From IMG/VR virus record IMGVR_UViG_3300045988_066369, positions 88,892 to 152,891 of that record: a DNA stretch of 64,000 nt; one strand, 5' to 3'. Position 1 is the stretch's first letter; each line of letters begins with the position of its first letter. This document shows positions 2,565 through 35,854 of the stretch, piece after piece. The position numbers and the translations under genes were made by a program. The notes below the pieces were generated by a model. The model was not told the origin of the DNA. It searched no databases and was given only the letters and a program-made list of their open reading frames with translations. Source of the DNA: a virus.

Positions 2565-3842
2565 TTAAAAACGATAGGTAAAATTCTGCAATTTTTTCTT
2601 GTAAGGTTCCCAAGGCTCTCCATTAAGTAACTTTCGTAAGTTATCTACATCAATAGTAACATACTCGCTCTTTTGATGAGACTTCTTAAACCATTCTTGT
2701 TCAACGGTATCTTCTAGCACTAATGTGAATATTTCAGAGTATTTAGAACCTTCTTTTCTAATGACCCTACCAGCGGCTTGAGTGCTTTTTGTGCTACTAG
2801 AGTCAACTCCAAGCATTATCCCGACCGATAGACCGGGACAATCAAAACCTTCAATAGCCAATTTACAGCTATTAATCACGCCCTTGTCTAGTAGGGCGAA
2901 CTCCTCAAGTGTAATTCTGTTTTGTTTTTTACTTTCTTTGCCAGTGTAAACATATCCTACTCCTATCTTCTCTGCCATTGCAGTGTTAGCAGAGAATGTA
3001 ATAATTTTCTTGTCTGCTCTGTGAGCAATAATCTCCCTAGCCACTTCTAATTTAGCCGGATGATTATGGATAAACTTTTTTCTAGCTTGTAAAGCTCTCA
3101 TAAAAGCTGTAGAATGAAAGGTAATCTGCTTCAAAGCATTAGACAGCTCAGCTTTATCCGAACTACTACAAATCTGGTTTCTGTAATTAAGCCTATTTCT
3201 GAGGCCGTCTTTACCAACCATACTCATTGCGAGTCCAAAATCAAAGTTAAAGAATTCAAAATGTCTTATAAATTCCCTATTTTGCTCTCGATAGCTTTCG
3301 ATGTCTTCTGCTGTGATAATTACTTGATATTCAGTAAAATCAGATACCCAACCATTGGCTTTGGCTACTTCAATAGTTACGCTATCAACTACAGGGCAAT
3401 ATTTCTCGACTATAGTATGTCTACCGTCAAGTCTTTCCAGAGTAGCAGTTAGTCCAAGAATTAACTTGTATTTAACCTTACTAAATACAAATTGTAAAGT
3501 CTCAGCAGCAGTTCTATGGATTTCATCAATGATTAAAAAGTCACATTCGTATCCATTCTTTGCTGTAGTATTTACAACTTGCACCTCTGTATTTAACCCT
3601 AGACCTTCCTTATCTAATATATCTATCCACTGATTCTTTAAAAGTTCCGTGGGGACTACTACCAATGCTCTAATAGTAGGATATTTAGATAGAACAGCCT
3701 TTAAACAATTAATAGCACATCGTGTTTTACCAAAGCCTGTACAGGCTTCTATGGTGCCTCTTCCTTTATGTAATAACCAGGCTCTCTTACATTGCTCCTG
3801 TCGCTCATCACGAGTAACAGGAGTAAAGAGGTCTTTCATCAA
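2565..3842 (-). CDS. SF2 DNA/RNA helicase (DEAD/DEAH-box type)
   Basis: 425 aa; motif I TGFGKTR, motif II IIDEIH, motif III LGLTATLER. Confidence 0.7.
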   Translation of the reverse strand: MMKDLFTPVTRDERQEQCKRAWLLHKGRGTIEACTGFGKTRCAINCLKAVLSKYPTIRALVVVPTELLKNQWIDILDKEGLGLNTEVQVVNTTAKNGYECDFLIIDEIHRTAAETLQFVFSKVKYKLILGLTATLERLDGRHTIVEKYCPVVDSVTIEVAKANGWVSDFTEYQVIITAEDIESYREQNREFIRHFEFFNFDFGLAMSMVGKDGLRNRLNYRNQICSSSDKAELSNALKQITFHSTAFMRALQARKKFIHNHPAKLEVAREIIAHRADKKIITFSANTAMAEKIGVGYVYTGKESKKQNRITLEEFALLDKGVINSCKLAIEGFDCPGLSVGIMLGVDSSSTKSTQAAGRVIRKEGSKYSEIFTLVLEDTVEQEWFKKSHQKSEYVTIDVDNLRKLLNGEPWEPYKKKLQNFTYRF

Positions 3843-23315: not shown

Positions 23316-23395
23316 AGTTGCGGAGGTAGGATTCGAACCGTTTATGACGATTTCTAGGTTATGAGCCTAGCGAGATGACCAACTTCTCTACTCCA
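23316..23395 (-). tRNA. tRNA-like element with perfect CAT anticodon arm but non-canonical T-arm (tRNA-Met/Ile2-like or pseudo-tRNA)
   Basis: Anticodon arm ctagg-ctcataa-cctag, D-loop-like agttggtcat, T-loop sequence ggttcgaatcc present but flanks do not pair. Confidence 0.35.
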
Positions 23396-23515
23396 CGATA
23401 TTAGTAGCTAATTTACATCCGCTACTCAGGGACGCCCTTCTAACCGTAGGTGACGACTGGGTGATAACGTAACCAGACACGTTAACTATTGTAGTTAAAA
23501 GACTTGCACGTCGAG

Positions 23516-23590: not shown

Positions 23591-23676
23591 GTGACTACTT
23601 CTCCACCCCGTAAGACTAGCTATTCGGAGATAAGACCAGTTACAACTTGTAACTGCTGTGGAGCCTTGTTTCGTCG

Positions 23677-23758
23677 TTCCGATTAAAGGATTTGAACCTC
23701 TGACCTCCCACTAATGCTTTATTGGTATGGGCGCTCTACCATACTGAGCTAAATCGGA
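23677..23758 (-). tRNA. tRNA-like with expanded (about 15 nt) anticodon loop accaataaagcatta
   Basis: Acceptor tccgatt/aatcgga, D-arm gctc-agtatggtag-agc, T-arm agagg-ttcaaat-ccttt all canonical; anticodon stem cccat/gtggg closes a 15-nt loop. Confidence 0.45.
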
Positions 23759-25198: not shown

Positions 25199-25218
25199 AA
25201 GCAATAAGATTAGTGTAG

Positions 25219-25292
25219 AATCTAGAGTGGGATTCGAACCCACGAAACACGGTTTTGCAGACCGTTCCCTTAGACCGCTCGGGCATCTAGAC
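25219..25292 (-). tRNA. tRNA-Cys (anticodon GCA)
   Basis: Acceptor gtctaga/tctagat, anticodon stem acggt/accgt loop ctgcaaa, T-arm gtggg-ttcgaat-cccac. Confidence 0.65.
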
Positions 25293-25319
25293 ATAAAGGG
25301 GAGACTAGCTCCCCAAGTT

Positions 25320-26732
25320 TTATAGTACCAAAGAGTTGTAAGTACCTCTACGATACAGAGACGGTTTACTATTTGGATCTTTAATCCAGTAGTAATTAAT
25401 TTTGTTGTCGTCTTTAGTAACCACGATTCCTAGTTTCTTGTCAATCGCAATAATTTCGTCATTATAGAAGTCATCTCCAACTGCCAGATTTGCGAACTTA
25501 ATATCCGAAGATACATAGTAATATGACAGATTGTGGAAATTGTGGCGGCGATATTCATAATACTCGTTAAGAGCTTTTCTTTCCTCAACAGTACAGTTAT
25601 CCTCATCGTCTACAATGGGCCTTGGCATCGGATTGTTGAATCTCTCAACAGCTTTAGAGAACTCTTCAATAGAGAATTTATTCTTATCAGCAGAAATCTC
25701 ACCAGCATATGCATAACCTCTAATGCAGGAATAGTCATACTCATTAGTTACTACGTTGAAGAAGCCTTTAGCTCTTCTCAATCCTTCTATACCGTGAATA
25801 TTGACCTCATTAACTATAGTTTTGAGAATATCAATAGTAGATATAGTCAAAGAATCAATGAAATCAAGCAAATCTTGACGAGCTTCCGGCACTTGAAGTG
25901 CGTCGTCCAGATATTCGTTCACAACCTTCAAATCCAAGTTGCCAAATTCCTTGACATAACGGATTCTAGACGGACGTCCTACCATATTCTCATTGATGGT
26001 CATGGCATTAGTAGTAAGCAGGAAAACCTTGCGATACTTAGAGTTGTAAACACCGTCCATGATTTGCAAGATAGTAGAATCCGATTCACTGAAATTCTTT
26101 TCAAATTCATCCAAGAACAGAATGCAATCTCCTTCAATACCAGAAAGGAACTCAATCATAGATTGATTATGGTCTCCCATATCCTTTACGATAATGATGG
26201 GCAGATTTAGCTTGTTAGCTAGTTCCTTAGCGGTAACAGTCTTTCCAGTGCCCTTTGTACCAGTAAGCATAATTCCGAGATTGCCTTCTGTAGCGTGATA
26301 CGTCTTAATTACATGGTCAATAAACTCGTTCTGCAAACCATACATTTTGTACGGGAATACAAACTTATCCGCATATCTGTCTAGGTGATAACCTGTCATT
26401 GTCAGACAAATACTGTAGATTCCAACTGGGAGAGACTGCTCAACGCTATAGCCTGAGCTTACCTGGGTATATGTAGACCCAGAACACATCCAAACTTTGT
26501 TCATTTTTTCTTTTTCTAAGTTACTTAAAACAGATGCCTGTTTGAGACATCCTACTAATTGATTAGCTATAGATTCTATAGCTTCTTTGTTATCAGTTTC
26601 CTCTGAGAGTCTTTTTACAAACCACTCTTTAGAACGGGCAACTATTTGCTCATCAGTCTCATTTTCGGAGATTGTTTCAGCAAATTCATGGTAGATACTA
26701 GTCAGCTTACCTTCTAATTCTTCTACGGTCAT
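25320..26732 (-). CDS. AAA+ ATPase
   Basis: 470 aa; Walker A GTKGTGKT, Walker B ILFLDEFE. Confidence 0.65.
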   Translation of the reverse strand: MTVEELEGKLTSIYHEFAETISENETDEQIVARSKEWFVKRLSEETDNKEAIESIANQLVGCLKQASVLSNLEKEKMNKVWMCSGSTYTQVSSGYSVEQSLPVGIYSICLTMTGYHLDRYADKFVFPYKMYGLQNEFIDHVIKTYHATEGNLGIMLTGTKGTGKTVTAKELANKLNLPIIIVKDMGDHNQSMIEFLSGIEGDCILFLDEFEKNFSESDSTILQIMDGVYNSKYRKVFLLTTNAMTINENMVGRPSRIRYVKEFGNLDLKVVNEYLDDALQVPEARQDLLDFIDSLTISTIDILKTIVNEVNIHGIEGLRRAKGFFNVVTNEYDYSCIRGYAYAGEISADKNKFSIEEFSKAVERFNNPMPRPIVDDEDNCTVEERKALNEYYEYRRHNFHNLSYYYVSSDIKFANLAVGDDFYNDEIIAIDKKLGIVVTKDDNKINYYWIKDPNSKPSLYRRGTYNSLVL

Positions 26733-26918
26733 TAGTAATCCTCCTCGTTATGTTCATTAGTTATGAGAGAACGAGCCTTTTCTATGCCGGATTTGTAAGC
26801 CTCTGTAACAAACACTATGGCAGTTTTTAGGTCCATTTGACCCATGGAATTGCCATTGTCTACCATTTCCTGAATAATTTCACTTAACTCTTTCATATTA
26901 CTTAATAAATAAAAGTTG

Positions 26919-27000
26919 TAGGGTAGGAGGGACTCGAACCCTCACGCCTTGCGGCACATGGGCCTAAACCATGCCTGTCTACCAATTCCAGCACTACCCC
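26919..27000 (-). tRNA. tRNA-Leu (anticodon TAG), type II
   Basis: Acceptor ggggtag/ctaccct, anticodon stem catgg/ccatg loop tttaggc, long variable arm, T-arm gaggg-ttcgagt-ccctc. Confidence 0.7.
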
Positions 27001-27009
27001 TTGCTCTAG

Positions 27010-27448
27010 TTAATTGTTATTATAATTGTGAAGTTGCATATGACAGTTAGAGCAAACTATCATTAGATTATCCAACTTATTATTATAATGGTTATTATCC
27101 TTGTGATGTAATTCTAAAGGAATTTTCATTCCCATCCACTCTGATAATCCACAACGCTCACACTTATCTTCTTTATATCCATCCTCTATTAATCTTATCC
27201 TCTTTCTAGAATTAGAAACATTAGGATTTTCTATCAGGTCTAAAGCATCTTTCCTCTTTGGGTCTAGTCTTTTTCCCTTAGAACCTTGATTCCCCTTATA
27301 CTCTATTCCCATCTTAATATAATAGGATTTTAAAGTATCAACCTTGCAATTTAGTCTTCTAGCTATTTCAGCATTAGACTCATTTTCTGAAATCCATTGT
27401 CGGATTTCCTATTCTCTTTCTAAAATGTCGATTCTTGCCTTTGCCATA
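27010..27448 (-). CDS. HNH homing endonuclease with N-terminal helix-turn-helix domain; contains one in-frame TAG (read as sense)
   Basis: Track ORF 27010..27312 has HNH motif CERCG...ELHHKD...CSNCH; upstream in same frame MAKARIDILERE(TAG)EIRQWISENESNAEIARRLNCKVDTLKSYYIK joins directly. Confidence 0.55.
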
Positions 27449-27482
27449 TTAAATACTATAAATTCCGCCACTACCCCAACTG

Positions 27483-27755
27483 TTAGGTTGCTTTTATTTC
27501 TTTAGCAACCTTAACCATTTCGTTATATTTCTCTACTACCTTATTAAAGTCTTCCTCAGATATTTGAAAAACTTTGTGAGAGTTTCCATACCACTCTTCT
27601 TGACCAGGAAGCCACATTACATTAATATATCTCTTCTTTTCTAATTCCATATGTACCTTAGATGAATCAATATAAACTGAATAGGCATCCTCTTCGATTC
27701 TACTACTTCGTGGATCTGTTGGGTCGGATGTAAGTCTGAAAAACATTGTTGACAT
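27483..27755 (-). CDS. hypothetical protein
   Basis: 90 aa ORF. Confidence 0.35.
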   Translation of the reverse strand: MSTMFFRLTSDPTDPRSSRIEEDAYSVYIDSSKVHMELEKKRYINVMWLPGQEEWYGNSHKVFQISEEDFNKVVEKYNEMVKVAKEIKAT

Positions 27756-27946
27756 ACCATTGAAGTCTATCTTGAAACACTTTCCTATATAGCTTTTAAG
27801 TAGTGCTTTATGTCTATTATCGCTATCTACCTTCTCTTGGCGTCTCTTCCGTTCTTCTTCCTTAACATATTCATTATACTCTCTTAGAGTGCTGTCTGGA
27901 TGCTTGTCCAGATATTCTTCTATAGGACTCTTTCTTCCCCCACATA

Positions 27947-28363
27947 TTATACTACTTTAAGATGGCAATAAATACTAAATTCTGGAATTGGAATCCAAGT
28001 TGCAATACCATTGCTATCTACTGGTTTACCCTTGTTGATTGTACAAATAGTGATATGAGGTTTAGCATTTGCACAAGGCAGATATTGGTCTCCCAATTCT
28101 ACTCCAAAAGCTATTGCTTTCTCAGAAATCCCTATTTTGTTTACAATTAATCGAAAATTACCATCTATACGATATTGTAGGTCATTAGCCATCTTTTCTT
28201 CATGTTGATTTTTATGGAGAAGAGTGCAATGATCTAAATAAATAGTACTTCCTCTTTGGAACACCAGATTGCAAATGATGGGATTTCCAATGATAACTTG
28301 CATAAGTTTGTTTCTAGTTGGTTCATCTAAGAACAATCCAAAATACTGATAATTCATACTCAA
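27947..28363 (-). CDS. hypothetical protein
   Basis: 138 aa ORF. Confidence 0.4.
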   Translation of the reverse strand: MSMNYQYFGLFLDEPTRNKLMQVIIGNPIICNLVFQRGSTIYLDHCTLLHKNQHEEKMANDLQYRIDGNFRLIVNKIGISEKAIAFGVELGDQYLPCANAKPHITICTINKGKPVDSNGIATWIPIPEFSIYCHLKVV

Positions 28364-28378
28364 AAATTTAAATATTTG

Positions 28379-28451
28379 TTGGGAGTGCCAGATTCGAACT
28401 GACGACCTCTGGGCTATGCACCCAGCGAGCTGACCACTGCTCTAACTCCCA
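28379..28451 (-). tRNA. tRNA-Met (anticodon CAT)
   Basis: Acceptor tgggagt/actccca, D-arm gagc-agtggtcag-ctc, anticodon stem ctggg/cccag loop tgcatag, T-arm gtcag-ttcgaat-ctggc. Confidence 0.75.
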
Positions 28452-28505
28452 TAGATTAATACATTGTCCTAGGCTATACCAATCTATACTATCTATCTTC
28501 CGATA

Positions 28506-28540
28506 AACAGATGTGGACCTAGAGGGCTTTGAACCCCCGA
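28506..28540 (-). pseudogene. 3' fragment of a tRNA (variable loop + T-arm + acceptor 3' strand taggtcc) matching the 5' tRNA-His-like fragment at 29250-29293
   Basis: ggtc-ggggg-ttcaaag-ccctc-taggtcc-a; 7/7 complementarity to acceptor ggaccta located about 750 bp away. Confidence 0.45.
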
Positions 28541-28548
28541 CCTTCTGA

Positions 28549-29145
28549 TTATGAGTCTTTCTTTCTTATTCCTTGAATAACTCTGCGAGTTAATCCAAAA
28601 TGCTGTGCAACTTTCTCCCAATTCTTAAGTATTTCATACTGCTCATTTACTTCTTCTAGAGAAGGATAATGTTTATCAGCATCTCTGCATTCCTTAGAAC
28701 AGTATATCTTACCCTTAGATTTAGGAAATCTTTTGCCGCATACTGGGCATACAGACCCAGTCATGTTTTCAAAAGACGTCTTATCTTTGGCTTCAGTATT
28801 AACTAAATCTTCAACTTCGTCCATTCCCAAGTGAGGATTATGTACTTCTCTATGACAATTAGCGCATAGAAGTTGACATTTATCTGCTTCCTCTTTAAGC
28901 CTTTCTAGACTTGTATTAGATAAATGTCTCATATCTAACTGAAACTCTTTCTCATCTGGATTGATATGGTGAAATTCTAGAACAGCTATGTTTCTATCAT
29001 AGCCACATAGTTCACATTTACCACCACGAGATTTTATTAGCTCTAATTTGCGCTTTAAACCTCTTAACTTTTGTGTATTATAATCATTGTAATTCATATA
29101 CAAATATATATGAAAATAATCATAATACCAAATGTTTTGGTGCAA
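28549..29145 (-). CDS. HNH homing endonuclease with C-terminal zinc-ribbon
   Basis: 198 aa; CELCGY...EFHHINP...CANCHREVH HNH motif; CPVCGK...CSKEC. Confidence 0.65.
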   Translation of the reverse strand: MHQNIWYYDYFHIYLYMNYNDYNTQKLRGLKRKLELIKSRGGKCELCGYDRNIAVLEFHHINPDEKEFQLDMRHLSNTSLERLKEEADKCQLLCANCHREVHNPHLGMDEVEDLVNTEAKDKTSFENMTGSVCPVCGKRFPKSKGKIYCSKECRDADKHYPSLEEVNEQYEILKNWEKVAQHFGLTRRVIQGIRKKDS

Positions 29146-29170
29146 AATTAAAAATTCAATCCAGAAGCTG

Positions 29171-29247
29171 TAGGGACGGTGGGGTTTGAACCCACGTGCG
29201 ACCGACTACCCTTTCTACAAGGTATAAGCTTGAGGGGATACGTCCCT
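29171..29247 (-). tRNA. tRNA-like element (perfect acceptor agggacg/cgtccct and T-arm gtggg-ttcaaac-cccac; D/anticodon region non-canonical)
   Basis: Hand fold; 77 nt; internal coaxial hairpin ccct-caag-[cttatac]-cttg...aggg. Confidence 0.4.
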
Positions 29248-29249
29248 AT

Positions 29250-29293
29250 CTAACTCACAATTAGTTGCTCTGACCGGACTGAGCTATAGGTCC
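29250..29293 (-). pseudogene. 5' two-thirds of a tRNA-His(GTG)-like gene (acceptor ggaccta, D-arm gctc-agtccggtcag-agc, anticodon arm actaa-ttgtgag-ttaga), separated from its 3' part by inserted tRNA-like + HNH gene
   Basis: Hand fold; a complete canonical tRNA-His(GTG) exists separately at 35780-35854. Confidence 0.45.
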
Positions 29294-29299
29294 TAAATA

Positions 29300-29503
29300 T
29301 TATTCGTATGCACTTATTGATTTGCATTCAAATATTACCGTCAGAACATCGCTTGGTTTTATATTAAACTTAGCAAATTCTAGCATCAACTTTTCCATTT
29401 CTTCTACGGAATGTGTTTCTCCTATGATACTTTTTCTATCTATAGAAGTTTGAAAATTGGCAAACAATTCTGTAACTAAACAACTATTAATTATTACTCT
29501 CAT
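29300..29503 (-). CDS. hypothetical protein
   Basis: 67 aa ORF. Confidence 0.3.
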   Translation of the reverse strand: MRVIINSCLVTELFANFQTSIDRKSIIGETHSVEEMEKLMLEFAKFNIKPSDVLTVIFECKSISAYE

Positions 29504-29650
29504 TTCTTACTATTATTTGTTCTTCTGGTTTTAACTTTTCTGCTGCATCAGAGTGTAGCTTACCACACCAACAAACTCCGAATGAATTTTCTCGAACTTT
29601 ACATTTACCTTTGTCACAAAACTTGACAACCTTTCTATAATCTTCTGGCT

Positions 29651-29977
29651 TCATAATTTAGAACGTATATCGTTAATTAACGCTTGAATCATATGAGTTT
29701 GTTCTCTCCATTTGTAATGAAATTCAAGACTGTTAGACTCTTCTTCGGTTAATGGAATATGAAATAATATCTTGTGGTGTATATTTTTAAACCATTTCCT
29801 CTCAAGCTTCCTACTTTCCTTAGTTCCTACCTCATATCCTCTCTTAGATTTACGGTTCTTAGAACGACCACGTGCCCAACCAAATTGTTTGCCATCATTC
29901 ACCCATTTCCAGTCTGCTCTGGCTTCTTTTTGCCTAAGCCTCTTGTTAATGATATTAATCTTTTCTATCTCTTCCAT
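29651..29977 (-). CDS. hypothetical basic protein (start trimmed to Met37 to avoid tRNA-Gln)
   Basis: Track ORF 29651..30085 runs into tRNA at 29992-30063. Confidence 0.4.
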   Translation of the reverse strand: MEEIEKINIINKRLRQKEARADWKWVNDGKQFGWARGRSKNRKSKRGYEVGTKESRKLERKWFKNIHHKILFHIPLTEEESNSLEFHYKWREQTHMIQALINDIRSKL

Positions 29978-29991
29978 ATTTGTTAATTTTG

Positions 29992-30063
29992 TTGGGCTAC
30001 TAGGACTCGAACCTAGACTGACAGAATCAAAATCTGTAGTGCTAACCATTACACCATAGCCCA
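29992..30063 (-). tRNA. tRNA-Gln (anticodon TTG)
   Basis: Acceptor tgggcta/tagccca, D-arm tggtgtaatggttagcac, anticodon stem acaga/tctgt loop ttttgat, T-arm ctagg-ttcgagt-cctag. Confidence 0.75.
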
Positions 30064-30127
30064 ATTTTGGCTTAGCTATTCTCACGAACCACTAAGTCTA
30101 TTTACCATGAAAAACACACAATGCAAG

Positions 30128-30204
30128 TGGGACGAGGCAGGATCGAACTGCCGCTAACGTCCTGGATTTTCAGTCCAGCGCTCTACCTACTGAGCTATCG
30201 TCCC
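30128..30204 (-). tRNA. tRNA-Phe (anticodon GAA)
   Basis: Acceptor gggacga/tcgtccc, D-arm gctc-agtaggtag-agc, anticodon stem ctgga/tccag loop ctgaaaa, T-arm ggcag-ttcgatc-ctgcc. Confidence 0.75.
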
Positions 30205-30459
30205 ATGTCCGTTTATAATATATAGGCATAGATGAAGTAAACGGATAAAACCTTCATCTATGGAAAAGAGTCCCAAAGCAAGTTATGCATTTCCGAGTAT
30301 GTTACGCACGTACTAAGGCGACTTCAACGGACTTAAGGTTATTAGCATTGCGCACTACTAATAACGTTTTGCTGGATTTATCCCTCAGCCATCCACTCTA
30401 TATACTACATAAGGGGTCTATGCAGTCGATAGTCTACTAAGTGCACTTTCAACTATCAG

Positions 30460-30714
30460 TTATTCCAATTCTAGTATTTTTTTGTTCCACCAGTTAGTTA
30501 AATCCTGTAAAGAAAACTTAAATTCTTTTTCAAAGTCTTCTAACGGAACAACTTCTTCTCCTACTTCTATAGCCCACTGCCAACACGCTTCTACTTCTGC
30601 TAGTTCAATAGGCTCCTCACATAGCCAAGTATCATCTAGAAGCATACTGAGAAATTCTTTATGAAGGCTTCTAAATATTTCAATTTTATCTTCCATGAAC
30701 TTTATGATTTTCAT
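30460..30714 (-). CDS. hypothetical protein
   Basis: 84 aa ORF. Confidence 0.35.
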   Translation of the reverse strand: MKIIKFMEDKIEIFRSLHKEFLSMLLDDTWLCEEPIELAEVEACWQWAIEVGEEVVPLEDFEKEFKFSLQDLTNWWNKKILELE

Positions 30715-31105
30715 CCTGATTCACGAACTCTGCCTTAAGTTTATCCTTATAAAGCGGAATAATAGTATCAGCAGAATCAGTAAAACAAAAGTATTGTCCA
30801 TTACTAAGTCTCTGGAAACGGATATACTTTATCCACCAATGGTCAATAGAATCCAATACCAAATGCCTCCAGTCTCCCTCACCACCCGATGCAGTCTCTA
30901 AACTCTTTAGTAAGGGAATAATCTCGTCCTTATTAAACGAACATTGTTCTACTATAATTCTATTCTTTTTCAGGAATTTATTTAATACTTTCCAAGGTTG
31001 ACTTATAGTATCATAAGTAACCATATAAAAATCTCTTGTATCGCAGTGTGCACATTCAAAATCGGATAGCTCTGCGATTGAATCTATGTATTTCCATTCG
31101 CTCAT
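30686..31105 (-). CDS. hypothetical protein
   Basis: 139 aa ORF. Confidence 0.4.
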   Translation of the reverse strand: MSEWKYIDSIAELSDFECAHCDTRDFYMVTYDTISQPWKVLNKFLKKNRIIVEQCSFNKDEIIPLLKSLETASGGEGDWRHLVLDSIDHWWIKYIRFQRLSNGQYFCFTDSADTIIPLYKDKLKAEFVNQDENHKVHGR

Positions 31106-31129
31106 ATCTAATAATTATTTAAGTTAATG

Positions 31130-31217
31130 CGGAGGCAGCTGGATTCGAACCAGCGGGACCCTTTTGAGGCCCGGAGTCTTAGCAGGACTCTGGTTTAGAC
31201 CGCTCACCCATACCTCC
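31130..31217 (-). tRNA. tRNA-Ser (anticodon GCT), type II
   Basis: Acceptor ggaggta/tgcctcc, anticodon stem gagtc/gactc loop ctgctaa, long variable arm, T-arm gctgg-ttcgaat-ccagc. Confidence 0.7.
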
Positions 31218-31277
31218 AAATTGCGAAGGGGCTTTTGTTATACTTTACTAATTCTTTGTAAAGCCCCTTCGCTGTGA

Positions 31278-33236
31278 TTACTTCACTTCTTCAAACTCAG
31301 TAGCTTCTACTTGCTTCTTTCCGAACATTTCCTTTACTGTGTCAGCGAAAGGAATAGAACGTAATAAGTCAAGAGCAGGATTCAAGTTCTCAGCAGTCTT
31401 AGCCATGAAATTACCAGCGGTATTCTCATTACCATAAACAGTAACCTGTCCAAGGTGAATGTGTTCAAACATCTGAGCAGATGCCTGAGCAATACCGGCC
31501 AATTGGTCAACAGTCTTGTACTGAACCACCATTTGTGGAGTCAAGCCAGATTCAATCATCTTCTCAACTGCCAAGGCTGGAGCCATTTCGATAGCTTGAA
31601 CCTTATCAGCTTCTGCCATCAATGATGCTCTCTTACCTTCAGCTTCAGCAAGCAATTTCTTGCGAGTACCTTCTGCCTCTGCTTCTAACTGCAGTTTAGT
31701 AGCGTCAGCTTTCGCTTCTGCTTCTTTCAAAATCTTTGCAGCTTCTGCTTCTGCTTCCAATACCGCTTTGGCTTTAATTGCTTCTGCTTCAATAGTTACT
31801 CTCTCTTTTTGTTTCTGAGCAGGAACAATCATTTCAGCTTGAAGTTTTGCTTCCTCTGCCTTAGCAGCAGCTTCGTTAACCTCAATCTGGCGTTCTTGTT
31901 CTGTTTTGGCTACAGCCATTCTTGCTTCTACTTTAGAAGTACCAGCTACCTTTTCTGCTTCAGCTTGTGCCTGTGCAGCTTCTCCTTTTGCCTTTGATAC
32001 TTCAATAGTTGCTTTCTGCTCAGCTACTCCAGCTTGCTTGTCAGCTTCTGCAGCCTTAATTCTCTTCTGAGACTCATACTCTGCAGTAGCAGCTTCTTGC
32101 TCATTAATTGCTTTCTGAGTGTCTGCTTCCTGCTTTTGCTTAGCTTGAGCAATACGAGTTTGCTTCAGAGCTTCAGCTTCAGCTTTCTTAGAATCTGCTT
32201 CTGCCTTAGCTTTAGCTACATTAGCTTCTGCTTCTGCGTCAGCAGCAGCTTTCTTAGAAGCAGCCTCTGAAGCGGATTTCGCTACATTAGCTATTCTCTG
32301 AGATTCAGCTTCAGCTTTAGCTGATTCTGCTTGAGTGTTTGCACGAGCAATACTAGCTTCTTGTTCCGCCTTCTGTTCAGCGATACCAGCTTGTTTGTTC
32401 TTTTCTGCTTCTGCCAAGCGAATAGCTTTCTCCTGATTAATCTCAGCAACCTTTACTTCCTGTTCTTGCTTAGTTTGAGCAACTGTAGTTTCTCTTTCCT
32501 TTTCAGCATCGGCTACGGCAATCTCACGCTGTTTGTTGGTTTCTGCAATCTGAATATCTCCTTTCTTCTTCTCTTCTGCAATGTCAGCCTGTGCCTGAGC
32601 AAGAGCTTTAGTTGCAGCTTTCTGACCAAGATTCTTGATATAGTTTGCATCGTCCGAGATATCAGCGTTGTTAATATTGATAATACTGAAACCTACCTTG
32701 TTCAACTCAGTTTCAATATTCTCTTTTGCCTTGCCGATAAATTTGATTCTATCAGCATTTATTTCCTCAATCGTCATTGTTGCCATCAAGCTTCTCACTT
32801 CACCAATGAGAATATCCTTGATTTGGTCTGAGATTTCAGAAGTTTTAGCTGTTAAGAATCTGCTTGCAGCGTTTTGCATTAGTACTTGATCGGTTCCTAT
32901 ACCAGTAGTTAATGTCACAGGAATCCTAACCTTAATCATTTGGCTGGATACTCCCTCTACCATTACCTGAATCTGAATAGGTTTCAAGGACATTTTAGCC
33001 CAGTCTTGAATGACAGGCATTACGAATGTACCTCCGCCGTGGATGATTTTAGACGGCAGTATAACTTCCTCCGTTTTACCAGTCTTCTCGTTAACTACCT
33101 TCTTCTTTCCTGCCTTACCAAATACTACCAGGATTTCATCACTAGCACACTTACGATACCGAGACAAAAGTCCGATAAAAGTTACAACTACTAAGAGTAC
33201 AATAACACCCGCTACAATAAGAGTTTCTGTTGTCAT
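31278..33236 (-). CDS. flotillin-like SPFH/band-7 protein (YqiK/FloT-like) with N-terminal TM and long Ala/Glu/Lys-rich coiled coil
   Basis: 652 aa; TM LIVAGVIVLLVVVTFIGLL, SPFH core, then AEAEANVAKAKAEADSKKAEAEALKQ-type repeats. Confidence 0.65.
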   Translation of the reverse strand: MTTETLIVAGVIVLLVVVTFIGLLSRYRKCASDEILVVFGKAGKKKVVNEKTGKTEEVILPSKIIHGGGTFVMPVIQDWAKMSLKPIQIQVMVEGVSSQMIKVRIPVTLTTGIGTDQVLMQNAASRFLTAKTSEISDQIKDILIGEVRSLMATMTIEEINADRIKFIGKAKENIETELNKVGFSIININNADISDDANYIKNLGQKAATKALAQAQADIAEEKKKGDIQIAETNKQREIAVADAEKERETTVAQTKQEQEVKVAEINQEKAIRLAEAEKNKQAGIAEQKAEQEASIARANTQAESAKAEAESQRIANVAKSASEAASKKAAADAEAEANVAKAKAEADSKKAEAEALKQTRIAQAKQKQEADTQKAINEQEAATAEYESQKRIKAAEADKQAGVAEQKATIEVSKAKGEAAQAQAEAEKVAGTSKVEARMAVAKTEQERQIEVNEAAAKAEEAKLQAEMIVPAQKQKERVTIEAEAIKAKAVLEAEAEAAKILKEAEAKADATKLQLEAEAEGTRKKLLAEAEGKRASLMAEADKVQAIEMAPALAVEKMIESGLTPQMVVQYKTVDQLAGIAQASAQMFEHIHLGQVTVYGNENTAGNFMAKTAENLNPALDLLRSIPFADTVKEMFGKKQVEATEFEEVK

Positions 33237-35779: not shown

Positions 35780-35854
35780 GGGTGTTATAGCGGATTTGAA
35801 CCGCTGACCTCTACAGCCACAATGTAGCGTTCTGCCAACTGAACTAATAACACC
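35780..35854 (-). tRNA. tRNA-His (anticodon GTG)
   Basis: Acceptor ggtgtta/taacacc, anticodon stem ctaca/tgtag loop ttgtggc, T-arm cagcg-gttcaaat-ccgct. Confidence 0.7.

Follow-up and report, generated by a model that had tools for sequence, protein, structure and literature searches.

Organization of the interrupted tRNA locus

The locus described here lies at positions 28506-29293 of a 64,000-nt stretch of viral DNA (IMG/VR record IMGVR_UViG_3300045988_066369, positions 88,892 to 152,891), called the window below. All coordinates refer to the window unless another locus is named, and the L-numbers (L001, L002 and so on) denote the loci and contigs with which it was compared. The source phage belongs to a human gut group of ~150-280 kb with 36% G+C, which has a tRNA island on the minus strand and encodes replication helicases and a nicotinamide phosphoribosyltransferase. 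At the locus, a tRNA gene is interrupted by what is probably a mobile cassette, which carries a gene for an HNH endonuclease and a small tRNA-like gene that we call the cargo. The following features were assigned.

29266..29293, minus strand: nt 1-26 (5' fragment) of a gene resembling tRNA-Ile2(CAU), contributed by the recipient genome
29248..29265, minus strand: decayed copy of the target anticodon arm, forming the left end of the cassette (actaa ttgtgag ttaga + t)
29171..29247, minus strand: D-arm-less tRNA-Ile(UAU)-like gene, the cassette cargo (Rfam tRNA model, covariance model R1 and covariation)
29098..29170, minus strand: AT-rich spacer of 73 nt from the cargo tRNA to the HNH start (read from the sequence)
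28549..29097, minus strand: HNH endonuclease gene, 182 amino acids (PHROG match, motifs, reading frame intact in sister copies)
28514..28557, minus strand: nt 30-76 (3' fragment) of that gene resembling tRNA-Ile2(CAU), collinear with the intact allele
28558..29262, minus strand: the 705 nt missing from the uninterrupted allele, which is the insert as defined by alignment with MT838061

The units of the cassette follow one another in the order of the decayed anticodon-arm copy, the D-arm-less tRNA-Ile(UAU), the spacer and the HNH gene. The 5' fragment consists of the acceptor strand ggaccta, ta, the D-arm gctc/agtccggtca/gagc and a final a. The intact allele of MT838061 and at least 13 IMG/VR contigs have this fragment in identical form; it varies among the cassette-bearing contigs, whereas the cassette does not. 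The 3' fragment reads ga, ctCATaa, tcaga, aggtc, ggggg, ttcaaag, ccctc, taggtcc, a, and overlaps the end of the HNH open reading frame (ORF). Downstream of the anticodon loop, the 3' fragment is allele-specific among the other cassette-bearing contigs. ARAGORN called 22 tRNAs across the window, none of them within 28506-29293.

The spacer holds a TAtaTTTG box (29108..29101); similar boxes, TAnnTTTG, precede the homologues in L011, L012 and L040. The box was considered as a promoter and as a clue to the host; in the window it lies just 3 nt from the ATG, and it was set aside.

The empty site and the identity of the broken tRNA gene

The human-faecal phage contig MT838061 (L001) is 99% identical to the window on both flanks of the insert and lacks exactly 28558-29262. 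L001 1-3348 aligns with window 25209-28557, and L001 3349-5761 with window 29263-31660. The insert is without a target-site duplication of the transposon kind. MT838061 joins 29263 to 28557, which yields a perfect tRNA gene of 75 nt: acceptor strand ggaccta, ta, D-arm gctc, agtccggtca, gagc, then a, anticodon arm gctga, ctCATaa, tcaga, variable loop aggtc, T-arm ggggg, ttcaaag, ccctc, acceptor strand taggtcc, and a. At least 13 IMG/VR contigs also have the gene uninterrupted, in alleles that share this acceptor stem and T-arm and vary in the D-loop alone. The cassette, whole or as remnants, is found in ~12 contigs, and filled and intact alleles coexist among near-identical phages.

An initial annotation of the window had seen here a tRNA-His-like gene split in the variable-loop region, had proposed that relatives be searched for the empty site, and had conceded that the complementarity of the two pieces might be coincidental. 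The allele of MT838061 provides that empty site and establishes the pieces as halves of one gene. It also shifts the break to the anticodon stem, since by comparison with the intact allele the insert falls between nt 29 and 30. The 3' piece had been correctly described in its variable loop, T-arm and acceptor strand; its end is 28514, the discriminator A, and not 28506. For the 5' piece from 29293, the acceptor strand and the canonical D-arm stand. The His anticodon arm attached to them turns out to be a duplicate borne by the cassette, and the 5' piece appeared longer than it is because the cassette starts with this decayed copy.

When the intact gene was compared with 5,426 Escherichia coli genomes, the best match was to a RefSeq tRNA-Ile with anticodon CAT. 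Every split allele has C4:G69 and C5:G68, and the positions 4:69 and 5:68 are identity elements of E. coli TilS (PMC11947777). In L165, a homologous cassette splits a canonical tRNA-Ile(UAU) gene. Because of this match, the two acceptor-stem pairs and the UAU target of L165, we read the broken gene as an AUA-decoding gene of the tRNA-Ile2(CAU) type. A scan for the empty site of the L010 lineage gave back just the L010 contig itself.

The GTG anticodon arm at the left end of the cassette

The first 17 nt of the cassette are laid out like an anticodon arm (5+7+5 nt). This stretch reads actaa ttGTGag ttaga in the window and actaa ttATGag tcaga in every sister copy, and all intact alleles have gctga ctCATaa tcaga at that position. 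Remnants of equal length and layout follow the 5' fragment in L039, L040 and L165, and shorter ones are present in L010 and L046. Positions 29248..29265 are a decayed duplicate of the target anticodon arm that travels with the cassette. A27 (29265) was assigned to the remnant, since G27 is found in all intact alleles that have this acceptor stem. The GTG itself is a single point change unique to the window, and the tRNA-His identity falls with it: the anticodon of the intact gene is CAT, and the sister cassettes read ATG. An intact tRNA-His(GTG) is nevertheless present elsewhere in the window, as had been annotated, and was located by ARAGORN at 35780-35853.

Mobility and decay of the cassette

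The 717 nt that run from the remnant arm through the stop codon of the HNH gene were compared between the window and eight other contigs (L002-L009), in which this cassette is 93-98.5% identical to the window. In six of these eight contigs, the 500-nt flanks outside the tRNA are ~50% identical on both sides, which is to say unrelated. The occupied alleles include those with the acceptor strands ggaccta/taggtcc (T-stem ggggg/ccctc), gggcctc/gaggccc (atcgg/ccggt) and gggccta/taggccc (gtcgg/ccggc). The two halves of each allele are complementary to one another, and at least four tRNA(CAU) alleles are occupied. The end-points of the cassette-derived sequence vary, as L006 retains its own nt 27-31 and L009 its own nt 39-43. 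Such a pattern is what the repeated insertion of one element at the same site of diverged targets, with variable co-conversion, would produce. Acceptor-stem covariation was considered as a sign of a functional split tRNA. It was rejected as such, since a near-identical cassette is present in different alleles and the covariation is therefore older than the insertion.

The same architecture occurs with diverged HNH genes (39-65% amino acid identity) in L010, L039, L040, L046 and L165. Several loci show the cassette or its target in decay. In L013 (2802-3280), the HNH gene is truncated at window position 28819 and joined to 26837. A 2.2-kb deletion has removed the HNH gene, the 3' half and a tRNA-Met from L032 (3323-3460) and L025 (1-120), so that the cargo tRNA is joined at its 3' end to the tRNA-Leu(TAG) trailer (window ~26941). 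In L039, one nucleotide of the anticodon loop is gone and the HNH stop codon has been lost along with it. The anticodon stem of L010 is without its 5' strand, only the 3' half is left in L011 and L012, and L014 has a frameshift. This decay and loss of the fragments, together with junctions that are not conserved, argues against splicing and for the cycle of invasion, decay and loss that is typical of homing endonuclease genes.

Two proposals of the initial annotation are borne out by these comparisons, namely that a mobile HNH cassette has entered a tRNA gene, now documented by the empty site and by the same cassette in different alleles with unrelated flanks, and that the locus is a snapshot of tRNA-gene turnover in a phage tRNA island, to which the deletion derivatives attest.

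The HNH endonuclease gene

The HNH ORF had been annotated with its mechanical limits, 29145..28549. The ORF is present, and homologues place its real start at the ATG at 29097. The protein matches PHROG 2255 (HNH) at 8e-26 and has the HNH motif EFHH...N...CANCHREVH, the CxxC...CxxC zinc ribbon noticed earlier, and a C-terminal tail resembling a helix-turn-helix. The motif H-H...N...CxxCH is invariant across the homologue alignment A1. Searches of PDB and NCBIfam with the protein gave weak zinc-finger or McrA-like matches, none of them informative. The 182-amino-acid ORF is intact in all eight near-identical copies; in the window it has no in-frame stops and ends in TAA, and its final codons and stop (gac tca TAA) are at the same time the anticodon stem and loop of the broken tRNA. 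Three of the marks of a homing gene are found together here: an HNH motif in an intact ORF, presence or absence at an exact site, and the same target in unrelated backgrounds.

Every close homologue has an Ile-type tRNA directly upstream, which is either a D-arm-less tRNA (UAU or GAU) or a canonical UAU or Ile2-like CAU tRNA. More distant HNH relatives (L070, L078, L107, L108, L101 and L080) adjoin tRNA-Asn(GTT) or tRNA-Arg(TCT) in other phage tRNA arrays, and HNH subfamilies may target different tRNA genes. Some homologues contain in-frame stop codons of the standard code. L011 (~3466-3468) and L012 (~3454-3456) have TGA where the window has TGG (Trp), and L014 has TAG at ~3028, 3034, 3464 and 3530 where the window has CAA or CAG (Gln), so that the HNH family would span phages of at least three genetic codes.

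Two neighbouring features were recorded in passing. A second small HNH ORF of 100 amino acids, with CxxC...HH...CSNCH motifs, lies at window 27010-27312 on the minus strand; it ends 10 nt upstream of tRNA-Leu(TAG) (27000-26918) and is weakly similar to the main HNH protein (E 0.013). In L011, ~100 nt with long inverted repeats (gactgtgacac...gtgacagtc) lie at 2755-2856, just upstream of tRNA-Ile(UAU); this stretch is conserved in L012 and may be a structured RNA.

The cargo RNA belongs to a family of putative D-arm-less tRNA-Ile

The 77-nt tRNA-like element that had been annotated at 29247..29171 reads agggacg...cgtccct a and is recovered by the Rfam tRNA model at 31.6 bits (gathering score 29), in an alignment that deletes the D-arm and places a long insertion ahead of the T-arm. 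Its predicted fold has a 7-bp acceptor stem, a 3-bp helix that extends the 4-bp anticodon stem, and a 5-bp T-arm. The anticodon loop is cuUAUac (anticodon 29226..29224), the T-loop TTCAAAC and the discriminator A, and a 14-nt 3' connector carries a D-loop-like TA..GGT..CA motif. The element accordingly has the 7-bp acceptor stem, the 5-bp T-stem with TTCRA loop, the 7-nt anticodon loop with U33 and a purine at 37, and the discriminator of a tRNA; the D-arm of the cloverleaf is missing.

None of five family members tested reached the Rfam gathering score. ARAGORN, run in standard, relaxed and mitochondrial modes on three members, gave no valid detection, its sole output being an implausible tRNA-?(Val|Gly) fold for one of the three at the 80% threshold. 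With our covariance model R1, family members score 75-101 bits, the window cargo 99.6 and ordinary tRNAs at most 35. Among 10 distinct HNH-linked copies, the four helices are paired in 97.9% of cells and 16 of the 19 pairs show compensatory changes, a level of pairing and covariation that none of 500 shuffles reached.

IMG/VR was then scanned with a pattern that covers the 3' connector and the T-arm and excludes the anticodon, and at least 119 loci were found. The 90 distinct viral sequences among the matches listed have 97.8% of cells paired and compensatory changes in 18 of the 19 pairs; this alignment was fitted to the model and leans towards the structure for that reason. Their anticodons are TAT in 61, GAT in 18 and CAT in 8, which makes 87 of the 90 Ile. 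The three outliers are a Val TAC and two low-scoring Arg relatives of 42-49 bits, with ACG in L131 (7912-7987, minus strand) and TCG in L139 (2864-2942, plus strand), and the fold may not be strictly limited to Ile. In representative genomes, one per species, all 33 members have Ile anticodons (TAT 20, GAT 9, CAT 4). Many of the 33 are part of tRNA arrays, and isolates of Chryseolinea, Chryseosolibacter and Pedobacter are among the genomes that carry them. Two examples are given here.

L290, 2189-2265: member of the family in Pedobacter nyackensis
L284, 6646-6722: member of the family in Chryseolinea

The family thus extends over phages of many habitats, cultured Streptomyces phages and some Bacteroidota genomes. 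Streptomyces phage Jay2Jay (NC_029098) has a member with anticodon GAU and 94 bits at 75237-75313 (L232 1495-1571). The D-arm-less tRNA is unannotated in Jay2Jay and in most of the other listed GenBank phage records, and the EGole record calls the site tRNA-Leu. The Jay2Jay gene gp110 (L232 960-1481), annotated as a nucleotidyltransferase, directly precedes the D-arm-less tRNA and could encode a CCA-adding enzyme.

Invariant throughout the family are U8-A9-U10, the anticodon loop c-u-N-A-U-a-y, the T-loop, and the D-loop-like connector T-A-A-U-n-G-G-U-y-r-C-A. The 77-nt element is not a degenerate relic. We also considered it as a degenerate tRNA-Leu and rejected this, as the likeness to tRNA-Leu(TAG) (26918-27000) is confined to the T-arm and trailer; that likeness explains the deletion in L032 and L025 and not a common ancestry. 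The putative class would have no D-arm, a 3-bp helix stacked under the anticodon stem, and a D-loop-like GG motif moved into the 14-nt connector. Within the window's long ORFs, a crude count gives ~17 AUA codons per 1000.

Further tRNA genes of the window deserve mention. Two minus-strand genes are irregular and may be damaged or unusual, an 81-nt "tRNA-Met(CAT)" with a poor T-arm region at 23317-23397 and a "tRNA-Tyr" with anticodon ATA at 23676-23758. ARAGORN also reported suppressor-type tRNAs at 42512-42582 (minus strand, anticodon TTA, reading UAA) and 44864-44936 (plus strand, CTA, reading UAG).

Proposed mechanism and alternative explanations

We consider it likely that a free-standing HNH homing-endonuclease cassette has inserted in the anticodon arm of a tRNA-Ile2(CAU)-type gene and inactivated it, without splicing. 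In the mechanism that we propose, the HNH enzyme would cut cassette-free AUA-decoding tRNA-Ile genes near the anticodon, and repair from a cassette-bearing copy would paste the cassette in, with short and variable co-conversion. The conserved tRNA halves would serve as short portable homology arms. The cargo RNA would be a working AUA-decoding tRNA-Ile whose gene differs in sequence and is therefore spared by the nuclease, so that the cassette would replace, at low cost to the phage, the function that it destroys. As to this replacement step, in which the cargo decoder escapes its own nuclease and substitutes for the broken gene, the sequence comparisons leave us evenly divided. The broader proposal, that the cargo represents a functional and undescribed tRNA-Ile class used by phages and some Bacteroidota, and that the HNH family exploits this class as a nuclease-immune substitute which makes the destruction of AUA decoders, including the TilS-dependent CAU type, free of cost, is offered tentatively and is rather doubtful in its entirety.

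Some points weigh against the proposed mechanism. The broken tRNA gene may simply be redundant in the whole genome. Its assignment is based on similarity and acceptor-stem pairs rather than on an isotype-specific model. A27 is the only cassette-linked single-nucleotide polymorphism available in the window as a marker of co-conversion, and the Pfam HNH score (PF01844) is 20.3 bits, just below the cut-off of 21.4. Lastly, only 8 of 107 independently found D-arm-less tRNAs adjoin this HNH gene downstream. The RNA is accordingly not an intrinsic part of the element; with every close HNH homologue lying beside a tRNA-Ile, it is the nuclease that associates with tRNA-Ile genes and not the reverse.

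This last count also speaks for an unlikely alternative, in which the cassette is as described and the broken tRNA dispensable, and the cargo is a hitch-hiking or otherwise useful tRNA-like RNA rather than a replacement decoder. It might be a processing signal by which the HNH mRNA is released from the transcript of the tRNA operon, or a decoy for a tRNA-targeting defence. Some homologues occur with canonical tRNAs or without any flanking fragments, and the window has two other CAT tRNAs, as this alternative would allow. A processing signal, however, predicts no match between the cargo and the target, and the upstream tRNA is always of the Ile type and the broken gene always an AUA-type tRNA-Ile. 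The anticodons of the family are limited to one amino acid across three anticodons, and no D-arm-less tRNA was found in the 306 kb around 36 intact tRNA(CAU) alleles.

The initial annotation had left room for an intron or a functional split tRNA. The 705 nt would then be removed, or the halves cut and religated, to give a working tRNA(CAU), whether by group I or group II self-splicing, by an archaeal-type bulge-helix-bulge endonuclease, or by RNase P and RNase Z cuts followed by a phage RNA ligase. It is true that the two halves are collinear and perfectly complementary and share a strand, and that several lineages retain an intact T-arm and acceptor stem; these intact halves are explained, however, by a recent entry of the cassette into different alleles. 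A search of 28300-29500 for Rfam intron and ribozyme families at E<=10, which covers group I and group II introns, returned none of them, only two tRNA matches and noise, and no junction pairing compatible with a bulge-helix-bulge was seen by eye, a check made without a dedicated search. The non-coding part outside the tRNA-like gene is just ~90 nt, the junction sequences differ between lineages, and relatives have lost the anticodon (L039), the 5' anticodon-stem strand (L010) or one half (L011, L012, L032 and L025). We regard such a splicing or split tRNA as very improbable. Slighter still is the chance that no homing is involved and that ordinary recombination and deletion between the repeated tRNA genes of the array produced the locus as a by-product, leaving an HNH gene unrelated to it between two tRNA relics. 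Arrays of tRNA genes do rearrange, as the 2.2-kb deletion of L032 and L025 and another in L013 illustrate. The same cassette, however, is found at one position of one kind of tRNA in at least four alleles with unrelated flanks, which already contradicts a single shared-flank origin of all cassette loci; the architecture recurs in at least five further lineages with diverged HNH genes, and the empty site is exact. What seemed a split or intron-containing tRNA-His is thus corrected to a putative tRNA-Ile2-type gene that was probably broken by a homing cassette.

Comparison with known systems

Mitochondrial tRNAs that lack the D-arm are known, for example mammalian mt-tRNA-Ser(AGY), and the review of these tRNAs does not mention phages (PMC7609411). 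Like mt-tRNA-Ser(AGY), the cargo has acceptor, anticodon and T arms, no D-arm and an extended anticodon helix. Unlike the mitochondrial tRNAs, it is found in phages and bacteria, is not shortened (77 nt), has almost exclusively Ile anticodons across its family, and possesses the conserved 14-nt 3' connector with its D-loop-like GG motif. We found no description of a D-arm-less phage or bacterial tRNA-Ile in the searchable literature, which is not proof of novelty, and the family may be new in its own right. If these RNAs decode, the tRNA inventories and codon-usage analyses of phages and some bacteria are incomplete, and the family would be a natural test case for the D-arm needs of the bacterial translation machinery.

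For the cassette, the nearest precedent is SegB of phage T4, a GIY-YIG endonuclease encoded by a free-standing gene within the T4 tRNA cluster. It recognises the tRNA T-arm sequence and drives the inheritance of itself and of the neighbouring tRNA genes (PMC2330249). Both systems have a free-standing endonuclease gene within a phage tRNA island and a tRNA-gene target, which is predicted in the present case. The enzyme here is of the HNH and not the GIY-YIG type, and its presumed target is the anticodon arm of tRNA-Ile rather than a T-arm motif. While segB lies between genes, the cassette sits inside its target gene and splits it.

In this last respect the cassette resembles mobE, a free-standing HNH-type gene that splits nrdA of Aeromonas phage Aeh1 (PMC3045599; reviewed in PMC2988022). 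In each case, an HNH-type free-standing gene lies within a conserved gene and leaves two collinear pieces. The protein halves of NrdA reassemble into a working enzyme, whereas a tRNA cut in the anticodon arm cannot; here, a separate cargo tRNA appears to take over the function.

Some bacterial tRNA genes, among them cyanobacterial tRNA-fMet and tRNA-Leu(UAA), contain group I introns that bear endonucleases. These introns too are mobile insertions in the anticodon region that can carry a homing endonuclease. The present insert differs from them in that it has no group I core and no sign of splicing, and in that it carries another tRNA gene. The conserved tRNA sequence suggests itself as a portable landing pad between unrelated phages. 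An element inside an essential-type gene may thus be tolerated by a third route: introns and inteins splice, split protein genes reassemble, and this cassette appears to bring a replacement.

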